Positions 1,058 to 58,509 of a stretch of 64,000 bases of DNA are shown piece by piece; within the stretch, counting starts at the first letter, position 1, and every line of letters begins with the position of its first letter. A model generated the notes under the pieces. That model was not told where the DNA came from. It searched no databases and saw only the letters and a program-made list of their open reading frames with translations. Both the position numbers and the translations under genes were made by a program. Source of the DNA: Escherichia phage vB_EcoM_01; sequence record PP129558. One strand, written 5' to 3'.

Positions 1058-1106
1058 AGATGTTTGTATAATGGATGACATAACAGATAGCCAATGAGGA
1101 GATGAA

Positions 1107-1539: not shown

Positions 1540-1542
1540 AGG

Positions 1543-2691: not shown

Positions 2692-2703
2692 AAGGGGNNT
2701 NTT

Positions 2704-3141: not shown

Positions 3142-3168
3142 TGTTTCGCACAACGAAAGGAGAATAAG

Positions 3169-3921: not shown

Positions 3922-4019
3922 AAGGAGGAAGATTATGGCTACTTTTCAACAACTGAAAGATGTTTCACGTTTAGTAAGAAAAATCCGAGAAGCAGACGCT
4001 GCTGCTGTCTCTTATACAN

Positions 4020-4609
4020 NNNNNNNNNNNNNNNNNNNNNNNNNNNNNNNNNNNNNNNNNNNNNNNNNNNNNNNNNNNNNNNNNNNNNNNNNNNNNNNNN
4101 NNNNNNNNNNNNNNNNNNNNNNNNNNNNNNNNNNNNNNNNNNNNNNNNNNNNNNNNNNNNNNNNNNNNNNNNNNNNNNNNNNNNNNNNNNNNNNNNNNNN
4201 NNNNNNNNNNNNNNNNNNNNNNNNNNNNNNNNNNNNNNNNNNNNNNNNNNNNNNNNNNNNNNNNNNNNNNNNNNNNNNNNNNNNNNNNNNNNNNNNNNNN
4301 NNNNNNNNNNNNNNNNNNNNNNNNNNNNNNNNNNNNNNNNNNNNNNNNNNNNNNNNNNNNNNNNNNNNNNNNNNNNNNNNNNNNNNNNNNNNNNNNNNNN
4401 NNNNNNNNNNNNNNNNNNNNNNNNNNNNNNNNNNNNNNNNNNNNNNNNNNNNNNNNNNNNNNNNNNNNNNNNNNNNNNNNNNNNNNNNNNNNNNNNNNNN
4501 NNNNNNNNNNNNNNNNNNNNNNNNNNNNNNNNNNNNNNNNNNNNNNNNNNNNNNNNNNNNNNNNNNNNNNNNNNNNNNNNNNNNNNNNNNNNNNNNNNNN
4601 NNNNNNNNN
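4020..4609. other. Assembly gap (N run) with duplicated flanks and adapter remnants
   Basis: 3856-4006 repeats at 4630-4780; CTGTCTCTTATACA at 4007-4018 and ACACCACGTCTG at 4610-4621. Confidence 0.8.
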
Positions 4610-4708
4610 ACACCACGTCTGTTGTNNAGATGAAAAGACTGGGGTACAAGCCAAACTACGCTCGTTACCCTTCTGAATACAACTGGTTTGACTAAAAGGA
4701 GGAAGATT

Positions 4709-4885
4709 ATGGCTACTTTTCAACAACTGAAAGATGTTTCACGTTTAGTAAGAAAAATCCGAGAAGCAGACGCTGCTGTGCGGAATGCACTAACGCCAGC
4801 AGAGCGTGAAGATCTTGAAGAGGAGGTGAAAACAGCCGAGAATGCTTTTGCTGCGTATCTTTCAACACTGTATACAGGAGGTTAA
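4709..4885 (+). CDS. Hypothetical protein (5' end also present in duplicated flank at 3935)
   Basis: AAGGAGGAAG RBS then ATG; 59 aa. Confidence 0.4.
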   Translation: MATFQQLKDVSRLVRKIREADAAVRNALTPAEREDLEEEVKTAENAFAAYLSTLYTGG

Positions 4886-5200
4886 ATGTCAGAGGAACTT
4901 AAAGAATTTTATCAGGTATATCATAACTGGCTATTAGCTGGTGCTCCAGATAATAATCCTTTCTGGCATGATAAAGGGTTATGTAGCTGCCTATATCTTT
5001 GGTCTGGTGGTTATGATGACCTAAATTATGAAATGCAAATGCAATTCCGCGAAGCAGGTTTGTCTGAAGAATACCCGTTTGATGATGGGGATTGGTTTAA
5101 ATATGATTTTGCACAAAGAAACGGGCTGCTACATTTGAATGCTGCTCGTATAAAATGGGTAAAAGATCATGCCACACAGGAGGATGTGCAATGCCTATAG
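4886..5200 (+). CDS. Hypothetical protein; paralog family member (GLCSCL ... GLSEEYPF ... RIKWVKD)
   Basis: ORF with AGGAGG RBS; family motifs. Confidence 0.5.
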   Translation: MSEELKEFYQVYHNWLLAGAPDNNPFWHDKGLCSCLYLWSGGYDDLNYEMQMQFREAGLSEEYPFDDGDWFKYDFAQRNGLLHLNAARIKWVKDHATQEDVQCL

Positions 5201-5391
5201 TGTTTGTTTTCTTGGCAATTGTTATGGTGGTTCTTTTCGCTGCATGGCTTTGGGATTTTGACCCAGGAGCCGCGCAGCAAAGAGCTACAGACTTGAAAGA
5301 ACAATGTATTGTGCTCAAACATGAACGAAATGCGGAGAAATTTCTTGACCTGGAGTGTGATCGCCTTGTAAGATACAAGCAAGATAAATAA
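5191..5391 (+). CDS. Hypothetical small membrane protein
   Basis: Hydrophobic N-terminus IVFVFLAIVMVVLFAAWLW; AGGAGG RBS. Confidence 0.35.
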   Translation: MPIVFVFLAIVMVVLFAAWLWDFDPGAAQQRATDLKEQCIVLKHERNAEKFLDLECDRLVRYKQDK

Positions 5392-5405
5392 CCTTGAGGT
5401 GCAAA

Positions 5406-5594
5406 ATGGTAATTGAGATTAAACTTGAACATGCTGGGGCTGTTGCCTTGATCGCACAAATGCTTGGAGCAAAGATTGAAGAAGTGTATATCAACGCCTG
5501 GAGCGTAGAGATTGATGTTCCTATGGACAACATTGCTAATCGCTTGCTGGTGGCAGAGTGTGAACGCACCAACATAATCTACAAAGGAGCATAA
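5406..5594 (+). CDS. Hypothetical protein
   Basis: ORF with GAGGTG RBS. Confidence 0.35.
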   Translation: MVIEIKLEHAGAVALIAQMLGAKIEEVYINAWSVEIDVPMDNIANRLLVAECERTNIIYKGA

Positions 5595-5595
5595 T

Positions 5596-5817
5596 ATGAA
5601 AATTAGAGTTTGTGATGTATTGGGTTATGTTGGTTTTGAGAATGTTCAGATTCCTTTTGTTGTTGAAGCACATCTTGTTAGTGAGGATATGACAACATTC
5701 TTTGTTACGATAGAAGAAATGTCCAAAGTTGAGGGATGGGAGTGGTTTGAAGAAGATGTTTGGGAAGGTTGTGATTACGTATTTTTCTCTGACGAAGTGA
5801 ATGTTCTTGCGGAGTAG
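5596..5817 (+). CDS. Hypothetical protein; C-terminal DYVFF motif paralog of ORF 1309
   Basis: ORF with AAGGAG RBS. Confidence 0.4.
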   Translation: MKIRVCDVLGYVGFENVQIPFVVEAHLVSEDMTTFFVTIEEMSKVEGWEWFEEDVWEGCDYVFFSDEVNVLAE

Positions 5818-5819
5818 GT

Positions 5820-6026
5820 ATGTCTTGTTTTACAAAAGCAGTATCCATATGTAAGAAACAGTATGAAAGTGATTACGGAATATTTAATATTCCAGTAGAT
5901 CATACAGTGTATTGTTCATGTGGTAGCAGAATGAAGAAAACAGTGATTTATGCGGATAATGGAGATGAACTTGTTCCAGTTATGGTTTGCAAAGCTTGTC
6001 ATTCTGTTAAAACATTAAAAGCGTAA
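5820..6026 (+). CDS. Hypothetical small Cys-rich (zinc-ribbon-like) protein
   Basis: CSCGS ... CKACHS spacing. Confidence 0.4.
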   Translation: MSCFTKAVSICKKQYESDYGIFNIPVDHTVYCSCGSRMKKTVIYADNGDELVPVMVCKACHSVKTLKA

Positions 6027-6121
6027 GGAGTCGGGACACCCGACGATTGGAGCTAAAAATTTTGCGTACAACCCTTTCCGCCCAACAGGGGCGCGTCGGG
6101 TAAATAAAGAGGAGAGTTTAT

Positions 6122-6520
6122 ATGAAAAAGATCATTGTAGGTTTATTGCTACTCGTTGCATCACTTGGAACAGCAAATGCGTCTCAAGTTTATGAGTGTG
6201 TGTCAGATGTGGTTGTTAAAAATCTGAAAGGTGAAGTGATTTCTGGTCCTAAGAAAATGGCTTCTGTTGTCATTAATAAAGATAACTCCTTTATCCTTAA
6301 AAATTCAGGTGGTGCTTTGATGAGTGGCATTCTGCAATACACAGGAGAAAAAAGTAAAGATGGTAGTGCTATGTACGGTTCACAACAATTTATTGGCACT
6401 ACTGAAGTAGTAATGATGCGCACAGAGTATCGAGACACTTTGGCTTGGTTTGCATTTCTAAAAAATGATAAAACAATAACGAATGTTCTTACTCTAGAAG
6501 CTGATTGTACGCAACGATAA
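6122..6520 (+). CDS. Hypothetical secreted protein with N-terminal signal peptide
   Basis: MKKIIVGLLLLVASLGTANA signal-like N-terminus; GAGGAG RBS. Confidence 0.5.
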   Translation: MKKIIVGLLLLVASLGTANASQVYECVSDVVVKNLKGEVISGPKKMASVVINKDNSFILKNSGGALMSGILQYTGEKSKDGSAMYGSQQFIGTTEVVMMRTEYRDTLAWFAFLKNDKTITNVLTLEADCTQR

Positions 6521-6529
6521 GGGGGATTT

Positions 6530-6976
6530 ATGACTAAAATGAGACATTACGCTGTAAACTGCAACGATGTTTGGCGTTTGTGTCCTGATGATCCGACAGA
6601 AGGCACATTTGTAAGATATGAGGATTATAAAGAGTTATCGGATGCTGTAGTCGCATTGTTAACAGATATCCGTTCACGTTATCCAGGACAAGATTTCACT
6701 TGCCCTCACATCAAACTTCTTGCCCTTCTGGTAGAAGGTGAGAAAGAAGTGGAAGATGGCTTCAAGCGTGTAGAGTATCAAGGTGAAACTTTAGAGGTTC
6801 CTGAATTTGTTAATTATATTGCAACAGATTCGAGTGGCGAGCGTTATGGCTACAGCCATAAGCCAGAGATTCCTGATTGGATTCCCGCTTGGAGATATTC
6901 CGTTAGTACCGGAGACTATATCTTCCTTGGTGTAGGTAGTAGTAAGGATTGGCGTTTCTCTTTGACAGAGGTTTAA
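6530..6976 (+). CDS. Hypothetical protein
   Basis: ORF with GGGGG RBS. Confidence 0.45.
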   Translation: MTKMRHYAVNCNDVWRLCPDDPTEGTFVRYEDYKELSDAVVALLTDIRSRYPGQDFTCPHIKLLALLVEGEKEVEDGFKRVEYQGETLEVPEFVNYIATDSSGERYGYSHKPEIPDWIPAWRYSVSTGDYIFLGVGSSKDWRFSLTEV

Positions 6977-6980
6977 TAAT

Positions 6981-7244
6981 ATGAAAGAGACATTGCCAGC
7001 AGCATACCGTTTGAATGATGAACGTATTTGGGAGTGGACCGACGTTTCTTGTTTTTACCCTGAAATAGTTCAATATTGGCGAGCAAAAGGGTGTGTTGTA
7101 GTTATCAACCCTTGTGGACCAGTGGATGAAGATTGCTTGTATCTCGATGGAAAGTGGCACAGTTATTGTCGCTGGCCTTTTGAGTGGATGTGTAAAGAAG
7201 ATCTCCCAGAGGGTTGGGAGTATCCAAAAGCAAATAGGAGATAA
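6981..7244 (+). CDS. Hypothetical protein
   Basis: ORF. Confidence 0.4.
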   Translation: MKETLPAAYRLNDERIWEWTDVSCFYPEIVQYWRAKGCVVVINPCGPVDEDCLYLDGKWHSYCRWPFEWMCKEDLPEGWEYPKANRR

Positions 7245-7245
7245 T

Positions 7246-7608
7246 ATGTCTAAAGATTTTGTTGAAGTGTTTGTCAAAGATGAAGAAACTGGTTTAGGCA
7301 CGGGTTTCATTTGTGAAGAAACTTTTAAACGTGAACAAGAAAAAGCTATCCTTATGCGAAACTATGATCATGCATTAGAACAATGGAAAAATGCAGAACA
7401 AAAATGCAAAAACCTTTATGCAGAAAATAGAAAACTACAAGATCAAATGGAGTTGTTAGCTATCAGTTTACGATCTCTCATTTTGGCTGTAGAAGACGGT
7501 TTTAAAAATCCAGATGGTTTTCCTGTGAGCGATATTGAACATGATTTGTATCTTGCTCGTGGTGCTTACTTTTATGTTAAACAGAAGTCTGTAGAAGGAG
7601 AGAAGTGA
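7246..7608 (+). CDS. Hypothetical protein
   Basis: ATG at 7246 after GGAGA RBS; table ORF 7114 trimmed. Confidence 0.45.
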   Translation: MSKDFVEVFVKDEETGLGTGFICEETFKREQEKAILMRNYDHALEQWKNAEQKCKNLYAENRKLQDQMELLAISLRSLILAVEDGFKNPDGFPVSDIEHDLYLARGAYFYVKQKSVEGEK

Positions 7609-7805
7609 TGGAAGAAAAACTGGAACGTATTATCGAGTTAGCCATGTCTATTGGCTACGACGATTGTTTTCTCCAAACTATTGGAGAAACACAGAACGAT
7701 TACGACTCTTGGGTGAAAGAGTTGGAAGAACTCAAAACTTCCTTGATTGCTGACTTTGCTGAAGCCGAGGATAAAGCAGATCGTTACAACTATCTGTGTC
7801 GATAA
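7608..7805 (+). CDS. Hypothetical protein
   Basis: ORF with GAAGGAGAG RBS. Confidence 0.4.
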   Translation: MEEKLERIIELAMSIGYDDCFLQTIGETQNDYDSWVKELEELKTSLIADFAEAEDKADRYNYLCR

Positions 7806-7808
7806 ACC

Positions 7809-7836
7809 TTGACATTTATTTTATGTATGGTATACA
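7809..7836 (+). promoter_or_regulatory. Sigma70-like promoter (TTGACA-N16-TATACA)
   Basis: Consensus -35 with AT-rich -10 upstream of gene 7868. Confidence 0.45.
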
Positions 7837-7867
7837 TACATTATCAACGTGAGCAAGGTGGTGTAAT

Positions 7868-8140
7868 ATGAATAAAGATCGGTTTCTTTCTTTAGTCGCG
7901 GAAGCTCCTTTTGATGTTCTTGGGGTGAGATTATGGAAAGACAGAAACTATGGGTTAGATGTTCAAACATACTCTCTTTGGTTGGTTGGGGAGCACAGCT
8001 TAGATGAAAGCTTGTGCATGGGTAGGGATTCTCGTTCCCTCTGTTTAAAGTTCAGAAGCTTAGAACGCGCAAACAAAGAGCAAGAAAAACTAACGAGGTG
8101 GCTAAATGAAAACAAGCACAAGGTTGATGGAGTTTTATAA
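7868..8140 (+). CDS. Hypothetical protein
   Basis: ORF downstream of promoter. Confidence 0.4.
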   Translation: MNKDRFLSLVAEAPFDVLGVRLWKDRNYGLDVQTYSLWLVGEHSLDESLCMGRDSRSLCLKFRSLERANKEQEKLTRWLNENKHKVDGVL

Positions 8141-8432
8141 AATTTATCTAGCATGGATTGATGTTGGTGCTCCTGATGGTAAACCTTTTCGGCGGGATTG
8201 TGGTTTGTGTGCCAACTTGTTCGATTATGTGCACAGAGGTAATTACAACCCCATTATAACAACCTTGTCAGATGAAATGCACGCACAGTTTTACCACAAA
8301 GGGTTGAGTCAAGCACTCCCTTTCAATGAGAACTACGATGCATATATCTTAGAATCAGATGCAGAGGTATGTCACCTGAACGTGGACAGGATTAATTGGG
8401 TAAGAGATCGTATTGCAGAGGAGGATGAATAA
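8106..8432 (+). CDS. Hypothetical protein; paralog family member (GLCANL ... GLSQALPF ... RINWVRDR)
   Basis: ORF; family motifs. Confidence 0.5.
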   Translation: MKTSTRLMEFYKIYLAWIDVGAPDGKPFRRDCGLCANLFDYVHRGNYNPIITTLSDEMHAQFYHKGLSQALPFNENYDAYILESDAEVCHLNVDRINWVRDRIAEEDE

Positions 8433-8659
8433 TGTCGGATTATAACTGGTATGAACTTGAGGCTGTTTGTCAGTTTTATGACTCAATAGTTCTGCGTGAT
8501 CCAATCTGTCAAGAATTGAGTCGCCGTGCAAGTGCATTGGCAATCCGTGTTAAAATAAACGGTTGGAACGCAGATTTGGAAAAAGAGTTGGAATTTCTCT
8601 TAGAAAACACGCGGGTCTTCCGCAAAGTGTTCCCTGAATGGTTTGAGATGGAAGAATGA
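8432..8659 (+). CDS. Hypothetical protein
   Basis: ORF with GAGGAGG RBS. Confidence 0.4.
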   Translation: MSDYNWYELEAVCQFYDSIVLRDPICQELSRRASALAIRVKINGWNADLEKELEFLLENTRVFRKVFPEWFEMEE

Positions 8660-8877
8660 TCATGTGGATTGTGCGTCTTAAGTATGATGGCCCTAATCCT
8701 TGGGTGAGAACAGTTTGCGGATGTGATACTAAAGAGTCAGCAGATAAAGCTGGAAGAATGATAAGTGCCTTTTATAATAGTAAACCTCTTTGTTTAGAAA
8801 TGTCTGGTGTGGTTTGTATGAGCATGTTCGAATACTACTCTTATGAGATCAAAGAACACCAAGGGGAATGGAAATAA
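8656..8877 (+). CDS. Hypothetical protein
   Basis: ORF overlapping upstream stop. Confidence 0.4.
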   Translation: MIMWIVRLKYDGPNPWVRTVCGCDTKESADKAGRMISAFYNSKPLCLEMSGVVCMSMFEYYSYEIKEHQGEWK

Positions 8878-17823: not shown

Positions 17824-18624
17824 TTATTTGTTTAAGTGGTCTTCGACCATTTTAATGAAACCTTCATTGCTGAAGGCTGTTGCAGCTTTTTCTCGGTAAA
17901 CAAAAACTCCACGATCTTCATAGAGAAGTGTTTCTTCGTAATTAACTCCAGGGTTAACTACAACCATTTTTGTTCCGATGTTAAGAGCAGGAAAAAGCTC
18001 CCAGTTAAAATTGATAACTTGATTAGAGCAACCCACTACAATCACCATATCTTGAGCCGTCAAGCCGTCTAAGATGTGGTACATATCGTTATACAATGGG
18101 GCAGTCTCCCCAAAGAACACTACATTGGGCTTCACATACTTGTAATCATCTACATCGATAGCAGCATAGCCAACATCTTTGATGATTCTATTGTCTACGA
18201 TCACTTCAGGCAGGAAGCCGTGAACATGTAGAACATCTTCATGAACAACACCTGCTTGTTCCAGAAGATCATCTACGTTTGTCGTGATGTTGATAACACG
18301 ATCACAGCCGTACTCTTGGAACCACTCTGCGATCTGGTAATGCGCAGCGTTAGGAGACACACTATCCATCTCTACGCGACGTTTATTGTAGAAGTCATGA
18401 GTTTTACGGTAGAGGTTGTATCCCTCTGCATCTAATCCACCAACAGCGCCAGGAACACACTGTTCTTGCTGGTAGCCAGCACGGAAATTGAAAATATCGC
18501 ACACTTCAGAAAGGTCGTATTCATCCCACAAAGCTTTCCCACTATCTGTATCAGTGCGGAAAGTACGTACACCGCTATCGGCGCTTAGACCCGCGCCGCT
18601 GATCACTATTAATCGTCTTGGCAT
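17824..18624 (-). CDS. Sir2-family (sirtuin-like) NAD-binding protein without visible zinc-ribbon module
   Basis: ISGAGLSADSGVRTFR, TNVDDL, HG, VVFFGE, VVGCS motifs; GAGGAGG RBS. Confidence 0.7.
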   Translation of the reverse strand: MPRRLIVISGAGLSADSGVRTFRTDTDSGKALWDEYDLSEVCDIFNFRAGYQQEQCVPGAVGGLDAEGYNLYRKTHDFYNKRRVEMDSVSPNAAHYQIAEWFQEYGCDRVINITTNVDDLLEQAGVVHEDVLHVHGFLPEVIVDNRIIKDVGYAAIDVDDYKYVKPNVVFFGETAPLYNDMYHILDGLTAQDMVIVVGCSNQVINFNWELFPALNIGTKMVVVNPGVNYEETLLYEDRGVFVYREKAATAFSNEGFIKMVEDHLNK

Positions 18625-34904: not shown

Positions 34905-35989
34905 TCGAAGTCAAGCTCCTCATCATCAGAGAGATCTTTGTTAGCTGAATTCAATTTGTAGTTAGTTAACTGAATCTCTTGGGCTGCTGACTGAATCAAA
35001 TCAGGATTCAACCATTTTTCCATCCAAGCTAAAGGACTATGTTTAGGTGCTTTAAACTTGGCTTTCATTTTCAATCGACGATAAATAGGGGCAGCATTGA
35101 AATAAACCCACTGTTTAGACAATTCGGCGTTAAGACCTACAATAAAACGCCCTTCACTAAACAGGTAGTCACACCACTGTTCCTCTTGTTCAACAACAGT
35201 GTCGAGAATCAAAGTCAACTCTTCGATATTGTCTTCGTAAATTTTACGCCAAATTGGGTCATGCATCAATGCATCAATTACAGCATAATCCATCTTAACA
35301 TGCAAGATTTCATCTAGCATAATTTTCTGGATCAGTTTACAAGCCCCAACAAACAGTTGTTGTTCTGCCATAGCAAAAGTAGCAGAGAAGGAAGATATAA
35401 ACTGAATACCTTCTAATCCAATCAGGGCTACCATCCCTTTAAGAATCAGCAGTCGAAGTTCATCGTTAGCTTCAATCAATCCTAGAGCATACTTATGACC
35501 AGCTTCTTCCAACTGACCCATGATATCAGCAATGATACCCATACGATTGAAAATTTTATCATTAATCATAATCTGATTGATGACTTCGATTGGATCTGGA
35601 GTACATTGACGGATTATTTCAGAATACGTTAACGCATGGAGAACTTCCATTTCACTCTGCTTCATCATCATAGCACAGGCTTCATTGTTACTCAAGAATG
35701 GAGAGAACAAAGTGATGATTGATTTTGCAAGAGAATCATTTTCCCATTGGAACGATAAGTTTTTAATCATAACATCATAGTTGTTTTTAGAACAAGCTAC
35801 GAAATCTTTACGTGTCTGATCCAGATTGACTTCATTCTCATCCCAATCTTGTGCTTTTTGAAGTTTGTAGAGTTTGTGCATCTCTGGATAAGTTACGTTA
35901 ACAGAATCAAAGATCCCTAATTGTTCCCCTAAAAATACTGGATATTTTCCTGTTTTGTAAACTTCATTGTGTAAATTAATTGCTGCCAT
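34901..35989 (-). CDS. nrdB: Ribonucleotide reductase small (beta) subunit
   Basis: Size and position next to nrdA; assigned mainly by context and family resemblance. Confidence 0.75.
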   Translation of the reverse strand: MAAINLHNEVYKTGKYPVFLGEQLGIFDSVNVTYPEMHKLYKLQKAQDWDENEVNLDQTRKDFVACSKNNYDVMIKNLSFQWENDSLAKSIITLFSPFLSNNEACAMMMKQSEMEVLHALTYSEIIRQCTPDPIEVINQIMINDKIFNRMGIIADIMGQLEEAGHKYALGLIEANDELRLLILKGMVALIGLEGIQFISSFSATFAMAEQQLFVGACKLIQKIMLDEILHVKMDYAVIDALMHDPIWRKIYEDNIEELTLILDTVVEQEEQWCDYLFSEGRFIVGLNAELSKQWVYFNAAPIYRRLKMKAKFKAPKHSPLAWMEKWLNPDLIQSAAQEIQLTNYKLNSANKDLSDDEELDFE

Positions 35990-36011
35990 TTAAAATTCTC
36001 CTCAATAAAAA

Positions 36012-36025
36012 GGGGCCGAAGCCCC
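36012..36025 (-). promoter_or_regulatory. Intercistronic GGGGCTTCGGCCCC hairpin between nrdA and nrdB, copy 3 of 3
   Basis: Hairpin + T-run then GAGGAG RBS and nrdB ATG; duplicated at 37013-37026 by assembly. Confidence 0.5.
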
Positions 36026-36123
36026 TAGTTTCATCACATCTTGCAAGCTTCACAACCACCATCAGAATCTTCTTGTGCTAAAGAGTCTGCTGATTTTGTT
36101 CTACTATTAAGGTAATACAATGA

Positions 36124-36975
36124 NNNNNNNNNNNNNNNNNNNNNNNNNNNNNNNNNNNNNNNNNNNNNNNNNNNNNNNNNNNNNNNNNNNNNNNNNNNNN
36201 NNNNNNNNNNNNNNNNNNNNNNNNNNNNNNNNNNNNNNNNNNNNNNNNNNNNNNNNNNNNNNNNNNNNNNNNNNNNNNNNNNNNNNNNNNNNNNNNNNNN
36301 NNNNNNNNNNNNNNNNNNNNNNNNNNNNNNNNNNNNNNNNNNNNNNNNNNNNNNNNNNNNNNNNNNNNNNNNNNNNNNNNNNNNNNNNNNNNNNNNNNNN
36401 NNNNNNNNNNNNNNNNNNNNNNNNNNNNNNNNNNNNNNNNNNNNNNNNNNNNNNNNNNNNNNNNNNNNNNNNNNNNNNNNNNNNNNNNNNNNNNNNNNNN
36501 NNNNNNNNNNNNNNNNNNNNNNNNNNNNNNNNNNNNNNNNNNNNNNNNNNNNNNNNNNNNNNNNNNNNNNNNNNNNNNNNNNNNNNNNNNNNNNNNNNNN
36601 NNNNNNNNNNNNNNNNNNNNNNNNNNNNNNNNNNNNNNNNNNNNNNNNNNNNNNNNNNNNNNNNNNNNNNNNNNNNNNNNNNNNNNNNNNNNNNNNNNNN
36701 NNNNNNNNNNNNNNNNNNNNNNNNNNNNNNNNNNNNNNNNNNNNNNNNNNNNNNNNNNNNNNNNNNNNNNNNNNNNNNNNNNNNNNNNNNNNNNNNNNNN
36801 NNNNNNNNNNNNNNNNNNNNNNNNNNNNNNNNNNNNNNNNNNNNNNNNNNNNNNNNNNNNNNNNNNNNNNNNNNNNNNNNNNNNNNNNNNNNNNNNNNNN
36901 NNNNNNNNNNNNNNNNNNNNNNNNNNNNNNNNNNNNNNNNNNNNNNNNNNNNNNNNNNNNNNNNNNNNNNNNNNN
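36124..36975. other. Assembly gap (N run) flanked by 148-bp exact duplication
   Basis: 35976-36123 equals 36976-37123. Confidence 0.8.
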
Positions 36976-46461: not shown

Positions 46462-47190
46462 TTATTTCTTAGCAATGATTTTTGCAATATCAGGTTTAAC
46501 AAAGGTAGAAGGCTTCATGATCTTACCTTTATCATCAAAGAACACATACACTTTCTGTTTTTCATTATAAACAGCATGAACACCAGTGTATGCCCCTTCT
46601 GGACGATTGGCATTTCGTTCTTCAATTGCAGCGCATTCTTGTGCAATGGCTGAATCGATATCCGAAGTTTTCCAAGTTTTCAGCAACTGTTGTTTAGTTG
46701 GATACTTGGAATCATTACTTTTCAATACCTCTTTAATAACTTTCTTTTCTGGATATTTTGAACGGATTAGAGTGTCACGAGACATACGCATAATACCAGC
46801 AGCCATTAGTGCCATTTGAACTGGCTCTGTAAATGTTTGTTCCAAAGCATCAAAATCAGTATACACAGTTGGAGTAAAAACATCGCCTACAACATAGTCC
46901 AAGAAATTCATCGTATGTTCTTCACCAAAGAACATGTAAGTAAGATAACTGGATACTACAAAAATATCCGCTGCTGCATCCAAGAGTTCTACATGATCGT
47001 TTACTTTCGCGGCTGTTTCATACTCTTTAAGCTCTTCACGAACGAACCCGATTTGGGACATAAATAGCTCTTGAGTGAATTCAGGTTGTTCACCACCTCG
47101 TGCTTTGGCATTCCAATCAATTACGTGCTTTGCTGCATTTTTGAAAAATTCAGTATCGAATTTAATATCTTTAAAAAAATTCTCGATCAT
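46462..47190 (-). CDS. MazG-like nucleoside triphosphate pyrophosphohydrolase (tentative)
   Basis: REELKEYETA (EExxE) and ELLDAAADI (ExxD) motifs. Confidence 0.45.
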   Translation of the reverse strand: MIENFFKDIKFDTEFFKNAAKHVIDWNAKARGGEQPEFTQELFMSQIGFVREELKEYETAAKVNDHVELLDAAADIFVVSSYLTYMFFGEEHTMNFLDYVVGDVFTPTVYTDFDALEQTFTEPVQMALMAAGIMRMSRDTLIRSKYPEKKVIKEVLKSNDSKYPTKQQLLKTWKTSDIDSAIAQECAAIEERNANRPEGAYTGVHAVYNEKQKVYVFFDDKGKIMKPSTFVKPDIAKIIAKK

Positions 47191-47199
47191 TATAACTCC

Positions 47200-47382
47200 T
47201 TATTTAAAATAGCTTTCTAGAAAGTTGCTAATATTTACTACAGACTCACCCATGTAAATCCCTGCGAAACCGAAAACAAGCATACGTGGAATATTGAAAT
47301 ACCATTTATCTGCCGGAAAAGATGCCAGAATTACGATAGCAATTGCTATCAACATCATAAGAATTGTTGCTAAAATTATCAT
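47200..47382 (-). CDS. Small hydrophobic membrane protein (lies in duplicated segment)
   Basis: MIILATILMMLIAIAIVILA; GGAGG RBS. Confidence 0.35.
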   Translation of the reverse strand: MIILATILMMLIAIAIVILASFPADKWYFNIPRMLVFGFAGIYMGESVVNISNFLESYFK

Positions 47383-47622
47383 AAAAATGCCTCCAGGTAT
47401 TTTGCACAATGATAAGCTAAGAACATTTTTCCTCCTTATTCTGCTGGTTCCCAAGTGCCTGGGATCATTTCTCGAATACGATAGCAATTGCTATCAACAT
47501 CATAAGAATTGTTGCTAAAATTATCATAAAAATGCCTCCAGGTATTTTGCACAATGATAAGCTAAGAACATTTTTCCTCCTTATTCTGCTGGTTCCCAAG
47601 TGCCTGGGATCATTTCTCGAAT
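47339..47622. repeat. Exact tandem duplication of ~142 bp (probable assembly artifact)
   Basis: 47339-47480 identical to 47481-47622, includes 3' end of ligase gene. Confidence 0.7.
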
Positions 47623-48708
47623 ACGAACACCAACAGGTTTTGTTGGAATACCTTCATCTGAAAATTCTTCATACTCTATTTCAACGAACTGATTAATCAA
47701 GGTAGAAGCATTCTCTGCTTTACGATAATTGATAGTCTCATGAGCATCTTTACGCATTAAGAATTCGACTACTTTACCATTTTCCATCTCACCTGTCAAC
47801 ACTCCATCACCATTTTTATCACTTTTTGAATTTGTTACTTTAACTTCAAGGGTGTGGCGAGGCTTACGTTTAATAACGTCATAAGAACGTTTATCAAATT
47901 CGTAAACTCCGTGAGCATTACGATATACTACACCTTCAGCTTTCTCAAGTAAAGCTTTTTCATAGAAAGCATCAAACTGTTCTTGGTTTTCAATATACTC
48001 TGTATGAACTACGCAAATAAGCTCGTCAAGACCATAATCTTCAACTACTGCCTTAAGAGCAGCAAGAACATCAACACGTTTTTCAAACGGTAGATCTGGA
48101 ACTGGAATATCGTATACGTAATAATTCAGCAAAGGTGTATTTGCATTATGCTTCTTCCAGGCACTGTTAATTTGTTGCAGACTAAGGACACCTAACCCAG
48201 CAAACACTTCACCATCAAGAGGATGACCAACAACTTCACTAATAAAGTTTGGAATACCTTTCCAATGAGGTGGCAGGTTATACACTTCTCCAGCTTTTGA
48301 TAAACACTCCCCTTTCATGTTAATCATAGAACGTAACCCGTTCAGTTTGTATTGTGCATAACCAGGGAACACAACCCTTTCAGGATAATCTTTATAATCC
48401 TGGCATTTCATTGGTGTGGAAGGAACATGGTTTTCAGCTTCTTCTTTTGTTTTATAATAGCCATTCTTTAACTGTTTTGTCCATTTGGCAAAAGCTTCAA
48501 GTTCAGCTTGTTCTTCTGGTGTTGTTTCATTGGAACGACCGATGTTTTTTGCTTCTGCTGTATAAGATTTTTCTGTGATTTTTCCACCTACCCTTCCATG
48601 AGCTACAGTAACAACTGCACCATCTGTATACACTGTCCACTGTTTAAGTTTTCCTTTTGAATCTTTACCATACAGCGTTTGATTTGTTTGTTGCATTAGT
48701 CCTCCCAT
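47581..48708 (-). CDS. ATP-dependent DNA ligase
   Basis: KLNGLR adenylation motif, DGEVF, 375 aa. Confidence 0.6.
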   Translation of the reverse strand: MGGLMQQTNQTLYGKDSKGKLKQWTVYTDGAVVTVAHGRVGGKITEKSYTAEAKNIGRSNETTPEEQAELEAFAKWTKQLKNGYYKTKEEAENHVPSTPMKCQDYKDYPERVVFPGYAQYKLNGLRSMINMKGECLSKAGEVYNLPPHWKGIPNFISEVVGHPLDGEVFAGLGVLSLQQINSAWKKHNANTPLLNYYVYDIPVPDLPFEKRVDVLAALKAVVEDYGLDELICVVHTEYIENQEQFDAFYEKALLEKAEGVVYRNAHGVYEFDKRSYDVIKRKPRHTLEVKVTNSKSDKNGDGVLTGEMENGKVVEFLMRKDAHETINYRKAENASTLINQFVEIEYEEFSDEGIPTKPVGVRIREMIPGTWEPAE

Positions 48709-49447: not shown

Positions 49448-49852
49448 TTATTGAAGTTTAAGTGAACCACGAAGACGCTTCTCTTGCTGATCACGAATAT
49501 ATTGTGGAACCTCGTGAATTGAATCATTACCGTGCCTATTTTCAACAACTAAAGAGATAACTTGATAACCAAACTCTTCAGCAAGAGTTAGATAAGGTTT
49601 AAGTTCTTTCTCTGTGGTTGAAGTGTTAGAAACAATAATCTTGTTAAGATTAGATGCCATAGCATCACGAACAATACTCTGACACCATGCGTGTGCTTTA
49701 CCTACATTTTCTGGCTTCCAATCGTAAACACCACTTTCTGTGTAATGATATTGATCTGCCTCACAGATAGGCCAATAACCTTCAGAAATAATTTCTGCTA
49801 CTGTAGATTTACCAGCACCTGAAACGCCACGTAAAATGATAAGTTGTTTCAT
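49448..49852 (-). CDS. Polynucleotide 5'-kinase (T4 Pnk kinase-domain-like P-loop kinase)
   Basis: Walker A GVSGAGKST at N-terminus, ~134 aa, adjacent to ligase. Confidence 0.6.
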   Translation of the reverse strand: MKQLIILRGVSGAGKSTVAEIISEGYWPICEADQYHYTESGVYDWKPENVGKAHAWCQSIVRDAMASNLNKIIVSNTSTTEKELKPYLTLAEEFGYQVISLVVENRHGNDSIHEVPQYIRDQQEKRLRGSLKLQ

Positions 49853-50786: not shown

Positions 50787-51338
50787 TTACTCTCCTTTGA
50801 TTATTTTGTGATGGTCTACAGTTACGATATCTCGTTTACTCATCATAGAAATTATCTCATCAAAATGTAAGATTTTTCCATGTGCATCCCAACCCACATC
50901 TAACATTTTACCATAAGCTTCATCAGGGAAAGATCCGTGGGAATGCCCATGTAGCATGATTGATCCACGACCTTGTTTATTCCAGGAGGCCATAGGGTAA
51001 TGGCTTAAGACGAAGAACAGCTTCTGATATTTCACTTCGTCATAATACACCACTTCTCCATACTCTGCAAGCACTTCTCGGTGTTTGCTGTAATCATGGT
51101 TCCCAACACAATAAGTGATATCCCCTTGGAGGCGGGAAGCAATCTTACGGGTATCTTCTTCAGTCCCGAAACAGAAGTCACCCAAATGCCACATCTTGAC
51201 ACCTGGACTCGTAGCGCATTTATTCCATGCTTCGATCAGTGCTTCTGTCATGTGGTCCATATCTTCCCACGGTCGATATTCAGGAGCAAACTCTCGTATA
51301 CGTTTGTGCATAAAATGCAAATCACTTGTAATAAACAT
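50787..51338 (-). CDS. Calcineurin-like metallophosphoesterase (candidate 2',3'-phosphatase of repair cassette)
   Basis: SDLHFMH, GDFCFG, GNHD, HGHSH motifs. Confidence 0.6.
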   Translation of the reverse strand: MFITSDLHFMHKRIREFAPEYRPWEDMDHMTEALIEAWNKCATSPGVKMWHLGDFCFGTEEDTRKIASRLQGDITYCVGNHDYSKHREVLAEYGEVVYYDEVKYQKLFFVLSHYPMASWNKQGRGSIMLHGHSHGSFPDEAYGKMLDVGWDAHGKILHFDEIISMMSKRDIVTVDHHKIIKGE

Positions 51339-51694
51339 TAGTATAATCCCTCGCTAAATAGGTCACGATCATGACCATTACGTTCGTAGTCAATCTGGTC
51401 TGCGTGTTTTGCAATAATGTATGCATCTTCACGACTCCACCAATTGTAGTATTGATCAATAAAACCTTGATTGTTTGGAAGACAATGCACTTTATCAAGC
51501 ACACCTGCTTCTTTCAATACATTCAATTGTGCTGATAATACAGGATTTGCATGTCGAACACAAGGAATAATTAACTCTTCACCATTATTCAAAATATATT
51601 TATTCGCAGCACAGACGATAACACGTTGCGCATAATGACCCTCACCAATCCAGGTAAGAGGTTGGTAACAAATGTTCTGATCAATACTACTCAT
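51338..51694 (-). CDS. Hypothetical protein
   Basis: ORF. Confidence 0.4.
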   Translation of the reverse strand: MSSIDQNICYQPLTWIGEGHYAQRVIVCAANKYILNNGEELIIPCVRHANPVLSAQLNVLKEAGVLDKVHCLPNNQGFIDQYYNWWSREDAYIIAKHADQIDYERNGHDRDLFSEGLY

Positions 51695-51912
51695 TAAGTT
51701 TCTCCTTAATAGTGAACACGAATCATTTTAATACCATAACGCAGCATGGATTCTTTTGCAAGCATATAACACGTTGCGCATAATGACCCTCACCAATCCA
51801 GGTAAGAGGTTGGTAACAAATGTTCTGATCAATACTACTCATTAAGTTTCTCCTTAATAGTGAACACGAATCATTTTAATACCATAACGCAGCATGGATT
51901 CTTTTGCAAGCA
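51619..51912. repeat. Exact tandem duplication of ~147 bp (probable assembly artifact)
   Basis: 51619-51765 identical to 51766-51912. Confidence 0.7.
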
Positions 51913-52210
51913 TGAATTTATCCCCAGCGGCGGGGTTAGAAGTATGCACGAAAATGGTAGGTGAACCAAAGCAAGGTTTACCAAACGCCAGAAGTTCTTC
52001 CAGGTACAGGAAAACATCATACCCATCTTGGTCTGACTCCATACCCAAATCGTTGTCAAAATGCCACTCGTCTACAAAACGATAACCCTTCTGCACCTCA
52101 TTCATGTAACGAGAGGCAAGAAGTTCCTGTGAGGTTTTAAACCAGATTGCATCTGGACAACCATAATCTTTTGGATCACGTAAATCATCAAGCCAAATAA
52201 TAGTACCCAT
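51854..52210 (-). CDS. Hypothetical protein with N-terminal IIWLDDxRDP motif
   Basis: ORF. Confidence 0.4.
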   Translation of the reverse strand: MGTIIWLDDLRDPKDYGCPDAIWFKTSQELLASRYMNEVQKGYRFVDEWHFDNDLGMESDQDGYDVFLYLEELLAFGKPCFGSPTIFVHTSNPAAGDKFMLAKESMLRYGIKMIRVHY

Positions 52211-52220
52211 ATAACCTCCT

Positions 52221-52691
52221 CTAAGCTGGCATTATTAAAAAAGAACTCTCCACTTCAAAATGCCAATCATCCACAAGCCCTGATTCCCAATCCTTCTCTT
52301 CATGGAAAGAGCAAATCCAACGGTACATACCTGGCGGTGTATTCTCAACATCTTCTGGCAACCCGTAATCCAAAGCTGTCAAACCGTTCTCTGTAAAACT
52401 AGGATGGAGATTAGGAGCTTTCAATACAGAAACCATGCCTCCAACATCTACAGCCACAATCCACTCTGTCATGTATGGGCTGTCATATTGAGGCTCATCA
52501 GAACCTACCTCAACAGCCTCTGTGCGTAAGATGATAATAGCCTGCTCTGTGATTGGGGCTTTGACAATATAACCTTGGTCCTCAAAAAGATCGATAACCT
52601 CGAACTCATCGCCGTTTTCGACACCATAACTCTTATTCAAAGAGATAAACTTCGGGTTATCATCGTAAGCTTTAGTTACTTTAATTTTCAT
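52221..52691 (-). CDS. Hypothetical protein
   Basis: ORF. Confidence 0.4.
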   Translation of the reverse strand: MKIKVTKAYDDNPKFISLNKSYGVENGDEFEVIDLFEDQGYIVKAPITEQAIIILRTEAVEVGSDEPQYDSPYMTEWIVAVDVGGMVSVLKAPNLHPSFTENGLTALDYGLPEDVENTPPGMYRWICSFHEEKDWESGLVDDWHFEVESSFLIMPA

Positions 52692-53073: not shown

Positions 53074-53351
53074 TTTGCATTCCTCTTGTTGTTGATAACA
53101 TCCATAGCAGTATATGGTTTATTAGTGCCATGATACTCCAGAATCATTGGAGAGCCTTCTTGCACTACTTCAAAGATACCATAAACAGAACTTTCAGCAA
53201 ATACCATTTGCTTCGTGCCTTCATCGTTTACAACGAGAGAAAACTTCTTGCCTGTCCCGTTGAGGATCTCGTATTTCTTGCCAGCAGTGAATAATCCAGA
53301 GTACCACTCATTATCTGTTGCTTTTACACACTTCAGGAAAGTCTTGATCAT
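53070..53351 (-). CDS. Hypothetical protein
   Basis: ORF. Confidence 0.4.
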   Translation of the reverse strand: MIKTFLKCVKATDNEWYSGLFTAGKKYEILNGTGKKFSLVVNDEGTKQMVFAESSVYGIFEVVQEGSPMILEYHGTNKPYTAMDVINNKRNAK

Positions 53352-53463
53352 TTCTTTTTGCTCCTCTTTTTAGATTTCTCATACAAACCTAACACAGCCG
53401 CTTCTTTTGCACAAGTAGGAACTGAAGTCATTCCTCTTCTTTTTGCTTCTGGCAGTTGCAAAG

Positions 53464-53844
53464 TCCATATTCNGTCTCTTATNNNNNNNNNNNNNNNNNN
53501 NNNNNNNNNNNNNNNNNNNNNNNNNNNNNNNNNNNNNNNNNNNNNNNNNNNNNNNNNNNNNNNNNNNNNNNNNNNNNNNNNNNNNNNNNNNNNNNNNNNN
53601 NNNNNNNNNNNNNNNNNNNNNNNNNNNNNNNNNNNNNNNNNNNNNNNNNNNNNNNNNNNNNNNNNNNNNNNNNNNNNNNNNNNNNNNNNNNNNNNNNNNN
53701 NNNNNNNNNNNNNNNNNNNNNNNNNNNNNNNNNNNNNNNNNNNNNNNNNNNNNNNNNNNNNNNNNNNNNNNNNNNNNNNNNNNNNNNNNNNNNNNNNNNN
53801 NNNNNNNNNNNNNNNNNNNNNNNNNNNNNNNNNNNNNNNNNNNN
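53464..53844. other. Assembly gap (N run) with duplicated flanks
   Basis: 53322-53463 repeats at 53860-54002; AGAGACAG adapter remnant at 53845-53852. Confidence 0.8.
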
Positions 53845-53879
53845 AGAGACAGCTTTTACACACTTCAGGAAAGTCTTGA

Positions 53880-54233
53880 TCATTTCTTTTTGCTCCTCTT
53901 TTTAGATTTCTCATACAAACCTAACACAGCCGCTTCTTTTGCACAAGTAGGAACTGAAGTCATTCCTCTTCTTTTTGCTTCTGGCAGTTGCAAAGTCCAT
54001 ATTCCCCACCAATAGATTTGGTCTGCCGTGAGTGGTTCAGCCATTGGATCTGCCTCCTGCTCCTCAAGACGTTGCAACGCTTCTTCAATCTTCTCGATTG
54101 GTGTGTCAAAGACGAATGCCTCCGTATCAAACTTATCTTTCTTAGGAACTGATTTGGCTACTTTGAGAACCTCGTTTTTCGGTTTCTTAGTAACGTTCTT
54201 TGGCTTTGATAACTTCTTCGGTGTTTTCGCCAC
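53880..54233 (-). CDS. Hypothetical Lys-rich protein
   Basis: ORF. Confidence 0.4.
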   Translation of the reverse strand: MAKTPKKLSKPKNVTKKPKNEVLKVAKSVPKKDKFDTEAFVFDTPIEKIEEALQRLEEQEADPMAEPLTADQIYWWGIWTLQLPEAKRRGMTSVPTCAKEAAVLGLYEKSKKRSKKK

Positions 54234-56495: not shown

Positions 56496-56570
56496 GGCCC
56501 TGTAGCTCAATGGGAGAGCTGTCGGCTCATAACCGATAGGTAGCTGGATCGAAACCAGCCAGGGCCACCA
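56496..56570 (+). tRNA. tRNA with CAT anticodon (Met, or Ile via lysidine)
   Basis: Hand-folded cloverleaf: acceptor GGCCCTG/CAGGGCC, anticodon loop CTCATAA, CCA encoded. Confidence 0.65.
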
Positions 56571-56572
56571 AC

Positions 56573-56647
56573 GTCTTTATGGTGTAATGGATAGCACAGG
56601 AGTCTTCTAAACTCTTAGTCAAGGTTCGATTCCTTGTAAAGACACCA
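56573..56647 (+). tRNA. tRNA-Arg (anticodon TCT)
   Basis: Acceptor GTCTTTA/TAAAGAC, T-arm CAAGG-TTCGATT-CCTTG, loop CTTCTAA. Confidence 0.6.
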
Positions 56648-56844
56648 GAACATTTTAACATGAATTAGCTCAAGTGATTTGAACCCACTACTGATCATGG
56701 TGGCAGAGAATGAGGCAAGTATGTCAGACATTATAAACAAAGGCCACGGTTATATTAGAAGACATAAATGCTCGAAGAGCACCGTTCGTGGAGAGCGGGG
56801 GTTGGTGGAGTCACCATTCATGGTAAAATGTTTTAAAAAACTAT

Positions 56845-56879
56845 TGACAACTAACATTATTTTATGTTAGATTATAAGT
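56845..56879 (+). promoter_or_regulatory. Sigma70-like promoter upstream of tRNA-Ser genes
   Basis: TTGACA at 56845; TTAGAT/TATAAG -10 candidates; upstream A tract. Confidence 0.4.
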
Positions 56880-56881
56880 AT

Positions 56882-56972
56882 GGAAGGGCAAATCGACGTG
56901 GCGACGAAAACGGTCTTGAAAACCGCCGAGCTTGAAAGAGCCTTGGGAGTTCGACTCTCCCTCCTTCCGCCA
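56882..56972 (+). tRNA. tRNA-Ser (anticodon TGA), long variable arm
   Basis: Acceptor GGAAGGG/TCCTTCC, loop CTTGAAA, T-arm GGGAG-TTCGACT-CTCCC; D-arm irregular. Confidence 0.55.
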
Positions 56973-56977
56973 GATTA

Positions 56978-57063
56978 GGTAGATTGGTGAAATGGTAGCC
57001 ACGACAGTTTGCTAAACTGTAGTCGGAAACGGCGTGTAGGTTCGAGTCCTACATCTACCGCCA
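56978..57063 (+). tRNA. tRNA-Ser (anticodon GCT), long variable arm
   Basis: Acceptor GGTAGAT/ATCTACC, anticodon arm ACAGT-TTGCTAA-ACTGT. Confidence 0.7.
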
Positions 57064-57193
57064 AGTTCTTTTTAATGTAGCTTACTTTAGCAGAGTAAAT
57101 CTTCGGCAAGTGGCGGTAACCACTTTACCGATACCTCATAGTTAGTGGTGAGAACACTGGCTATTTTAAAAAGAATTTAAATATTAGTATTTA

Positions 57194-57281
57194 GGTGAGT
57201 TAATTCCGTAGGGGTAGCGGGGCAGACTGTAAATCTGTTATCATTGCGATTCGGGTGGTTCGACTCCATCACTCACCACCA
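57194..57281 (+). tRNA. tRNA-Tyr (anticodon GTA), long variable arm
   Basis: Acceptor GGTGAGT/ACTCACC, loop CTGTAAA. Confidence 0.6.
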
Positions 57282-57287
57282 AATTAA

Positions 57288-57373
57288 GATGAGTTGGCTG
57301 AATGGTTTAAGCGGCGGACTGTTAATCCGTGTTCGAAAGAACAATATAGGTTCGAATCCTATACTCATCGCCA
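57288..57373 (+). tRNA. tRNA with long variable arm, anticodon uncertain (best fold reads GTT)
   Basis: Acceptor GATGAGT/ACTCATC, T-arm ATAGG-TTCGAAT-CCTAT; D-arm poorly formed. Confidence 0.45.
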
Positions 57374-57463
57374 GAATTATGGACTTGTAGAGTTAAGGTA
57401 AACCCCCAGTCGCCAATAGGCTTCTGGAATTGCAGGTATCGAATCCTGCCGAGTCCCAGCATT

Positions 57464-57538
57464 GCTCCTATAGTATAATGGCTATTACAACGGTTTTGTA
57501 ATCCGTGGATCTCTGTTCGATTCAGTGTGGGAGCACCA
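57464..57538 (+). tRNA. tRNA-Thr (anticodon TGT)
   Basis: Acceptor GCTCCTA/TGGGAGC, loop TTTGTAA, T-loop TTCGATT. Confidence 0.55.
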
Positions 57539-57811
57539 ACACAACATTAAGAGCACTGTGATTGATCGTCGTATCCTGTGCACAAGGTCTGCTCGAAAGA
57601 CAGTGTTCTTAGTATTGTGTTGATCACAAAAAGAGTCACCCGAAACTTGACCGGAGTAGGGTTGGATGGGGCAAAATGAGAAGCGGCTCTCCCATCGACA
57701 GCAACGAAGAATAATATTTGACTTTGGTTTTGTATTATTTTAAGTTAGCTTACCGAACGTAGGGCTAGTCACCCAACGGGATACTCGTCACTGTCCCAAT
57801 CAATAAAAGTC

Positions 57812-57840
57812 TTGACAACAAATAGTAAAATGTAGTATAG
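57812..57840 (+). promoter_or_regulatory. Sigma70-like promoter (TTGACA-N16-TAGTAT) inside tRNA region
   Basis: Motif upstream of tRNA-Gly. Confidence 0.45.
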
Positions 57841-57852
57841 TAAATATATAGG

Positions 57853-57926
57853 GCGTTCTTGGTGTAGCGGTAGCATTCCGTCCTTCCAAGTCGGCGGCAC
57901 GAGTTCGATCCTCGTAGAACGCTCCA
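57853..57926 (+). tRNA. tRNA-Gly (anticodon TCC)
   Basis: Acceptor GCGTTCT/AGAACGC, T-arm ACGAG-TTCGATC-CTCGT, loop CTTCCAA. Confidence 0.6.
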
Positions 57927-58024
57927 AATTATTTAATAAAGGGTTGCCAGAAAACTTTCTCTTTTACTCATGGTTTTCTCCTTCTCTCACACTTCTTCTG
58001 GTTGCCCTTCATTAAATGATTTAT

Positions 58025-58100
58025 TGGTTTGTAGTGTAGTCCGGTAGCACACGACACTTTGACTGTCGTAGGTTTGGTTCAAATCCAGACAGACCAGCCA
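58025..58100 (+). tRNA. tRNA-Gln (anticodon TTG)
   Basis: Acceptor TGGTTTG/CAGACCA, anticodon arm CGACA-CTTTGAC-TGTCG. Confidence 0.65.
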
Positions 58101-58267
58101 TATAACGGAATTTAGCTCAGTTTGGTAGAGCGTACGCTTTGGGAGCGTAGGGTCGCAGGTTCGAATCCTGCAATNCNGACAGACCAGCCATATAACGGAA
58201 TTTAGCTCAGTTTGGTAGAGCGTACGCTTTGGGAGCGTAGGGTCGCAGGTTCGAATCCTGCAATTCC
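58088..58267. repeat. Exact ~90-bp tandem duplication spanning tRNA-Gln 3' end and tRNA-Pro, N bases at junction (probable assembly artifact)
   Basis: 58088-58177 equals 58178-58267; Ns at 58175 and 58177. Confidence 0.7.
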
Positions 58268-58272
58268 GACCA
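58196..58272 (+). tRNA. tRNA-Pro (anticodon TGG); a redundant copy at 58106-58182 lacks a proper 3' end
   Basis: Acceptor CGGAATT/AATTCCG, anticodon arm TACGC-TTTGGGA-GCGTA, T-loop TTCGAAT. Confidence 0.65.
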
Positions 58273-58278
58273 ATTAAA

Positions 58279-58352
58279 TGTTTCGTAGTTCAATGGTAGA
58301 ACCCACGACTGATAATCGTGAGACACAAGTTCGATTCTTGTCGAAACAACCA
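58279..58352 (+). tRNA. tRNA-Ile (anticodon GAT)
   Basis: Acceptor TGTTTCG/CGAAACA, anticodon arm CACGA-CTGATAA-TCGTG. Confidence 0.7.
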
Positions 58353-58430
58353 GTTTCCCGTTAGACTTACAGGATAAGAGATCCACAATTTATTGTGACG
58401 CTGGTTCGAATCCAGCACGGGATACCTAAT

Positions 58431-58509
58431 AGCGGGATAGAGGAGTCTGGTCGTCCTCGCCAGTTTCATATGCTGGAGATCATTGGTTCAAATCCAATTC
58501 CCGCCTCCA
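58431..58509 (+). tRNA. Second tRNA with CAT anticodon (Met/fMet or Ile2), A1-C72 mismatch
   Basis: T-arm ATTGG-TTCAAAT-CCAAT, anticodon arm CCAGT-TTCATAT-GCTGG. Confidence 0.5.

Follow-up and report, generated by a model that had tools for sequence, protein, structure and literature searches.

Two studies describe the systems closest to the one analysed here. Iyer, Anantharaman, Krishnan, Burroughs and Aravind (2021, Viruses 13:63, PMC7824862) gave the cREC family its name and described its fold and conserved aspartates, its occurrence without histidine kinases and its linkage to RNA ligases. For V5/Mydo-type phages, Iyer et al. (2022, Viruses 14:1977, PMC9503650) list a T4-like tRNA ligase, cREC, a nucleotide kinase and MazG as neighbours, with a calcineurin-like phosphoesterase occasionally included. 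We have analysed a gene for a protein of 118 amino acids within a 64,000 nt stretch of DNA from Escherichia phage vB_EcoM_01 (PP129558), referred to below as the window, which represents a Phapecoctavirus-like coliphage of ~150 kb. The protein is an ordinary member of this known, computationally predicted family, and its locus is a slightly rearranged version of the published neighbourhood. Both the function of cREC and the V5/Mydo-type neighbourhood have already been predicted in print, and nothing at this locus is of a new kind. The published reading, in which cREC is a small phosphoesterase that takes part in the healing of RNA 3' ends, is also the best supported one, with a probability that we estimate at about 50%.

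The gene and its translation signal are located as follows:

51854-52210, minus strand: cREC gene, encoding a standalone divergent receiver-fold protein of 118 amino acids (PF20274; from profile matches, alignment and fold search)
52215-52221, minus strand: Shine-Dalgarno sequence GAGGAGG (from direct reading), 4 nt 5' of the cREC ATG

This open reading frame (ORF), which is ATG-started and has the N-terminus MGTIIWLDDLRDP in the ORF listing, had been marked as a conserved-looking protein in an earlier note made from the sequence alone; its coordinates stand, while the strand had to be corrected to minus. It is a real and intact gene with a conservation far beyond chance, because it is matched in Pfam, PHROG, cluster and tblastn searches alike. 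The Pfam match, to PF20274 ('cREC_REC, cyclic-phosphate processing receiver domain'), reaches 52.7 bits against a gathering cut-off of 27 (E=7.1e-14) and aligns residues 4-100 with positions 2-83 of the 88-position profile; the PHROG match (E=7e-29) is to PHROG 1479, a family of unknown function. All 52 homologous 90%-identity clusters from a collection of 5.8 billion proteins carry PF20274, and 2018 clusters at E<=1e-3, nearly all of them standalone proteins of 100-130 amino acids, were retrieved when 1.84 billion representatives were searched with a profile. By tblastn, the protein was detected in 343 phage genome records, most of which belong to Stephanstirmvirinae and Vequintavirinae, and some to T5-like or T4-like phages. 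With its ATG, its Shine-Dalgarno sequence, both family matches and many homologues the ORF is thus genuine, and the impression of conservation was well founded. The protein, a single domain without a fused output domain, is 100% identical to gp33 of Shigella phage SF1-1 (tblastn), and the 3.3-kb region around its gene shares 98.8% identity with SF1-1 and with Escherichia phage EF1-1. The gene lies in a tightly packed minus-strand block, where the preceding ORF of 156 amino acids stops 10 nt upstream and its stop codon is overlapped by the cREC Shine-Dalgarno sequence.

In GenBank, cREC is often labelled 'putative RNA ligase and tail attachment protein' (SF1-1 gp33, phage ukendt, vB_EcoM_REC, JLBYU08), evidently a mis-annotation propagated from the neighbouring RNA ligase (Rnl1) gene; some records carry the name 'cyclic-phosphate processing receiver domain-containing protein'. 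With PADLOC, neither cREC nor its neighbours matched a defence system.

A Rossmann- or receiver-like strand followed by an acidic loop had been read into the N-terminus in the earlier note, and the structural analysis agrees: the protein has a receiver-like Rossmannoid (beta-alpha)5 fold, for which the fold search returned receivers and not HAD enzymes. On the model, beta1 ends with D8/D9, beta3 ends with D52/D54, and the motif H-T-S-N-P follows beta4; in canonical receivers, these three positions hold the acidic pair, the phospho-acceptor Asp and the Thr/Ser, respectively. The conserved pocket residues are D8, D9, R11 and P13 in the beta1 loop, D52 and D54 in the beta3 loop, and H89-T90-S91-N92-P93 in the beta4 loop. 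Residues W6, D8, D9, R11, P13, D52, G56, G63, E71, H89, S91, N92 and P93 are invariant in close relatives. Across 105 representatives with 22-57% identity to the query, D9, D52, L55 and G63 are invariant, and D8, R11, P13, D54, G56, E71 and N92 are at least 90% conserved.

The receiver relationship rests on structure and not on sequence, because the sequence comparisons were null: hhalign gave a probability of 0.3% for the family alignment against E. coli CheY (a CheY sequence entered by hand), and when the PDB sequences were all searched with the profile, no sequence relative and nothing significant emerged. Weak PDB matches that resemble acyl carrier protein ('FxNDLGxDS') reflect a chance likeness. 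A canonical receiver (CheY, PF00072) was also rejected, as PF20274 was the only family reported at E<=0.1 and the protein has neither a conserved beta5 Lys nor a cognate kinase nearby; in contrast to CheY/PF00072, cREC has no output domain and possesses the extra invariant residues R11, P13, D54 and N92. Like other members of the cREC family, the protein is a standalone phage protein of ~110-120 amino acids that has a receiver fold and conserved aspartates and is not accompanied by a histidine kinase, and it agrees with the family in every testable respect, which comprises profile, fold, aspartates, freedom from kinases and neighbourhood. The family takes its name from a predicted activity, the hydrolysis of 2',3'-cyclic phosphate or cyclic ADP-ribose phosphate.

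The neighbouring genes and other relevant features of the window are:

51338-51694, minus strand: T4_Y16D-family protein of unknown function, 118 amino acids (PF26092, PHROG 839)
50787-51338, minus strand: calcineurin-like metallophosphoesterase, candidate 2',3'-cyclic phosphodiesterase / 3'-phosphatase, 183 amino acids
49853-50785, minus strand: T4 Rnl1-type RNA ligase, 310 amino acids (PF09511)
49448-49852, minus strand: standalone P-loop kinase, 134 amino acids (AAA_33, polynucleotide-kinase-like)
downstream of 49448, minus strand: coiled-coil protein and two small ORFs (minus-strand gene order)
47581-48708, minus strand: ATP-dependent DNA ligase (minus-strand gene order)
46462-47190, minus strand: nucleotide pyrophosphohydrolase of the MazG/PRA-PH superfamily, part of the cREC-associated gene set in Vequintaviruses
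17824-18624, minus strand: Sir2-family protein, 50% identical to the Sir2 protein adjacent to cREC in Vequintavirus and here 33 kb from cREC
56496-58509, plus strand: 11 phage tRNA genes, 4.3 kb from cREC

cREC had been placed directly upstream of a phosphoesterase-ligase-kinase cassette; it is upstream, but not directly, as the single T4_Y16D gene intervenes. The last sense codon of the latter overlaps the metallophosphoesterase ATG by one base (A at 51338), and the kinase is a bare kinase domain without a fused phosphatase. A scan for terminators and promoters yielded consensus noise, with no convincing terminator within the cassette. The locus resembles the V5/Mydo-type neighbourhood in its T4-like RNA ligase, nucleotide kinase, calcineurin-like phosphoesterase and MazG, with Sir2 also in the genome: the phosphoesterase, Rnl1 and the kinase follow downstream of cREC, and MazG and Sir2 are found elsewhere. 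It differs in that cREC is upstream of the phosphoesterase, with T4_Y16D between them, and not between the ligase and Sir2. Sir2 and MazG are dispersed in the window, while their homologues directly follow cREC in Vequintaviruses. The genes of the tRNA cluster possibly specify substrates to be protected.

Linkage was surveyed in 25 IMG/VR loci with relatives by tblastn with the window proteins. The gene order of the window recurs in two Justusliebigvirus-like loci (L011, L012), where cREC (6001-6339) is 47% identical to its counterpart in the window and T4_Y16D, phosphoesterase, ligase and kinase (6498-8744) are 82-96% identical. It appears from these identities that the cREC allele was exchanged while its slot was kept, with a mosaic breakpoint directly after cREC. 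Six Vequintavirus-like loci (L002-L007) have the order Rnl1-cREC-kinase, and a further one (L009) has Rnl1-cREC. In Vequintavirus 241Ecol014PP and one Logan contig, Rnl1 is followed by cREC with a 4-nt overlap, then by Sir2, MazG and, further on, DNA ligase, while the kinase and metallophosphoesterase are divergently transcribed. Another lineage (49% identity) carries metallophosphoesterase, Rnl1, kinase and DNA ligase 3.2 kb downstream of cREC. On the Treponema parvum chromosome (NZ_CP054257.1, L035), the gene for RtcB (4677-5900), a ligase unrelated to Rnl1, is followed 100 nt downstream by cREC (6001-6330) and then by genes for a DUF6994 protein and an HNH endonuclease; this segment may be a mobile element or prophage. 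Finally, cREC is embedded in tRNA clusters, with tRNA genes on both sides, in the T5-like Providencia phage PR1 (L037, 3483-3839), the T4-like Morganella phage vB_Mm5 (L038, 3501-3845) and two T5-like metagenomic contigs (L013/L015, 5962-6309). No mention of this setting was found in the sections on cREC of Iyer et al. 2021 and 2022. Linkage of cREC to RNA-repair genes thus recurs in at least four phage lineages and also beside RtcB, and together with fold and family membership it supports the proposal of the earlier note that the protein is a functional partner of the RNA-repair cassette.

We infer catalysis, substrate and pathway order as follows. cREC is a standalone divergent CheY-like receiver domain that keeps the acidic phosphoryl-binding pocket, has neither a histidine kinase partner nor an output domain, and is presumably co-transcribed with the phage RNA-repair genes. 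Its receiver aspartate pocket would process cyclic phosphates at the 3' ends of RNA cut by metal-independent nucleases, acting before the kinase and Rnl1; the next steps would be phosphorylation of the 5'-OH by the P-loop kinase and ligation of the break by Rnl1. In T4 Pnkp, the kinase is joined in one polypeptide to a phosphatase with an Asp nucleophile (DxDxT), which heals ends that carry a 2',3'-cyclic phosphate (PMC3592404). cREC and the metallophosphoesterase may supply in trans this end-healing activity, which has no counterpart in the 134-residue kinase of the window. The T4 Pnkp phosphatase is proposed as a functional analogue: it is a Rossmannoid phosphoesterase that relies on Asp, heals 2',3'-cyclic or 3'-phosphate RNA ends and acts together with a P-loop 5'-kinase and Rnl1. 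By contrast, cREC is a separate polypeptide that lacks both the DxDxT motif and the HAD cap, and its activity is predicted. An HAD/DxDxT 3'-phosphatase was rejected as an identity for cREC, since its motif is W-L-D-D-L-R-D-P, no HAD family is matched in Pfam and the fold search gives receivers. A 2H phosphoesterase was rejected as well, with a single H89-T90-S91 motif instead of two HxT/S motifs and a different fold. In other RNA repair systems the 2',3'-cyclic phosphodiesterase step is performed by 2H enzymes (LigT/CPDase) and by the metallophosphoesterases of Clostridium thermocellum Pnkp (CthPnkp) and lambda phosphatase, whose calcineurin-like homologue is encoded in the window two genes downstream of cREC. 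The fold and catalytic residues of cREC are unrelated to those of the 2H enzymes, with their two HxT/S motifs, and of the metallophosphoesterases, with their binuclear metal centre.

Several observations weigh against a role of cREC in RNA healing. The metallophosphoesterase class can perform both the cyclic phosphodiesterase and the phosphomonoesterase step on its own (CthPnkp, lambda phosphatase; PMC2190708), and cREC is therefore not obviously needed; it may be redundant, or may act on a different intermediate (a 2'-phosphate) or on the ADP-ribose cyclic phosphate of a Sir2 route. No RNA ligase or polynucleotide kinase was found within 3 kb of cREC at nine distinct distant viral loci confirmed by PF20274, nor at several loci from metagenome-assembled genomes (MAGs), and no ligase was seen at a tenth distant viral locus (L016), where the scan left out the cREC ORF itself; most of the ten distant viral and five bacterial or MAG loci that were inspected for RNA-repair neighbours are uninformative. 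Closer to the window, L001 and L008 keep cREC and the metallophosphoesterase without Rnl1 and kinase. The complete genome of phage phiWec181 (LC739534.1, 154,550 bp) encodes cREC (78% identity), T4_Y16D, metallophosphoesterase, MazG, Sir2 and DNA ligase, and a genome-wide tblastn with the Rnl1 and kinase proteins of the window and of Vequintavirus found neither, other ligase families not being part of that search. Some Phapecoctaviruses (phiWec181 loci L049-L053; also L001 and L008) have apparently lost Rnl1 and kinase, whose place is taken by a gene for 112 amino acids, and have retained cREC, T4_Y16D, the metallophosphoesterase, MazG and Sir2. Furthermore, the family-wide alignment shows no conserved residue in the place of the canonical beta5 Lys (K98 and R115 are conserved among close relatives only), whose positive charge is presumably supplied by the near-invariant R11. 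When fusion partners were sought by Pfam in the 20 longest of the top 150 representatives, cREC was found alone, with one tandem cREC; P0210, one of these 20, has a sub-threshold PTP/DSP-phosphatase N-terminus. Iyer et al. 2022 call cREC 'experimentally uncharacterized', and a full-text search of a literature library found no paper beyond the two of 2021 and 2022 that mentions the domain.

Because cREC persists without ligase and kinase, an alternative stays alive that was already put forward in both papers (PMC7824862, PMC9503650). cREC would here act on small molecules, either cyclic-phosphate and ADP-ribose-derived metabolites or immune second messengers, with ADP-ribose 1''-2'' cyclic phosphate, isomers of cyclic ADP-ribose and 2',3'-cyclic nucleotides as examples, and would be an NAD/ADP-ribose-centred counter-defence enzyme loosely tied to RNA ligation. 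In favour of this, the phages that lack Rnl1 and kinase keep the metallophosphoesterase and, in phiWec181, also Sir2 and MazG; the Vequintavirus cREC immediately precedes Sir2 and the MazG-like pyrophosphatase; cREC of Christiangramia adjoins a WYL-WCX regulator; and most distant members have no ligase nearby. The lineage with 49% identity carries divergently oriented NAPRTase-family and PRPP-synthetase-like genes 1-4 kb from cREC (L042, Logan SRR28800614 contig, 685-3238), a pair that resembles a phage NAD+ reconstitution pathway. However, RNA is indicated by the close overlap of Rnl1 with cREC, by the pairing of cREC with RtcB and by its location inside tRNA clusters, and no Nudix, Macro or NADAR fusion occurs among the 20 longer homologues scanned (Nudix fusions are reported in the literature). 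We hold a small-molecule substrate to be less likely than RNA ends.

It is improbable that cREC is a non-catalytic pseudo-receiver. Such a module would either bind an RNA end or phosphorylated ligand or dock on the ligase, kinase or phosphoesterase and regulate it, and D52 might be phosphorylated as in a true receiver. In favour of this, the protein shares its fold and acidic pocket with signalling receivers, which are normally phosphorylated to change partner binding; the catalytic Lys is absent, and the protein is very small and consists of a single domain. Yet a histidine kinase or phosphotransfer partner was found neither among the ORFs scanned nor among those annotated in the flanking 12 kb on either side in SF1-1, and none is reported for the family. 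The extra conserved polar residues (R11, D54, N92, E71) look like a remodelled rather than a decayed active site, and the gene is placed as an enzyme gene would be in an operon of enzymes. Least probable of all, in our estimate, is a chance adjacency, in which cREC came to hitch-hike beside the repair cassette through early-gene mosaicism and serves an unrelated function. In L011/L012, the change from divergent to conserved sequence lies exactly at the border of cREC (47% identity) with the gene that follows (82-83%), and cREC would therefore belong to a variable upstream module; it is also separated from the phosphoesterase by an unrelated gene and, in some phages, by a further gene for 47 amino acids. 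Against an accident, at least four phage lineages show the association again after rearrangement, it recurs with the unrelated RtcB in a spirochaete, and a cREC is kept at the same slot despite allele replacement.

The interval between cREC and T4_Y16D needs a separate comment, as the window contains exact duplications of ~145-153 nt, five in all, of which two are tandem and three bracket runs of N:

51618-51913 (51618-51765 / 51766-51913), no strand: exact 148-nt tandem duplication, comprising the cREC 3' end, an 11-nt spacer and the 5' end of the T4_Y16D gene
3854-4004 (+774), 35975-36123 (+1001), 47332-47626, 51618-51913, 53320-53472 (+532): the set of duplications
4019-4609, 36124-36975, 53483-53844: N runs

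The apparent 159-nt gap after cREC arises from the 148-nt duplication, which leaves the cREC ORF sequence unaffected; SF1-1 lacks the duplication and has 11 nt between the cREC stop codon and the next ATG. Because the duplications have a uniform, read-length size and three of them flank N runs, they are very probably unmerged contig overlaps from scaffolding and not biology. They give rise to spurious ORF fragments, such as a 39-residue chimera (51842-51723) and duplicated protein ends at ~53350-54230. A real polymorphism was considered for the 148-nt repeat, since some phage records are equal in total length, and was rejected, as alignment shows a different 148-nt insert there. In phAPEC8-type phages, this insert between cREC and T4_Y16D contains the extra 47-residue gene (L026, phage PNJ1809-36, 3802-3945). 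The insert site coincides exactly with the artefactual duplication in the window, and if the population was mixed with respect to the insert, this could account for the assembly break.

Retention of cREC without a phage ligase and kinase, as in phiWec181, and its placement in tRNA clusters hint at a ligase-independent role, for which feeding of the host RtcB or destruction of cyclic-phosphate immune signals are possibilities. cREC may prove to be the first receiver-fold enzyme acting on cyclic phosphates of nucleic acids or nucleotides, and a third, structurally unrelated way of resolving 2',3'-cyclic phosphate ends beside the 2H enzymes and the metallophosphoesterases/HAD phosphatases; the idea of a receiver-fold cyclic-phosphate enzyme is itself already in print as a prediction. 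The locus in the window adds no new concept, but it is a clean and typical example from an easily cultured coliphage group, and hence experimentally convenient. cREC is widespread, with the phage genome records noted above and about 2000 sequence clusters, and its chemistry is as yet a prediction. Phage RNA-repair cassettes reverse the tRNA cleavage inflicted by bacterial defence nucleases, and predicting the phages that evade a given defence requires the full list of their components.
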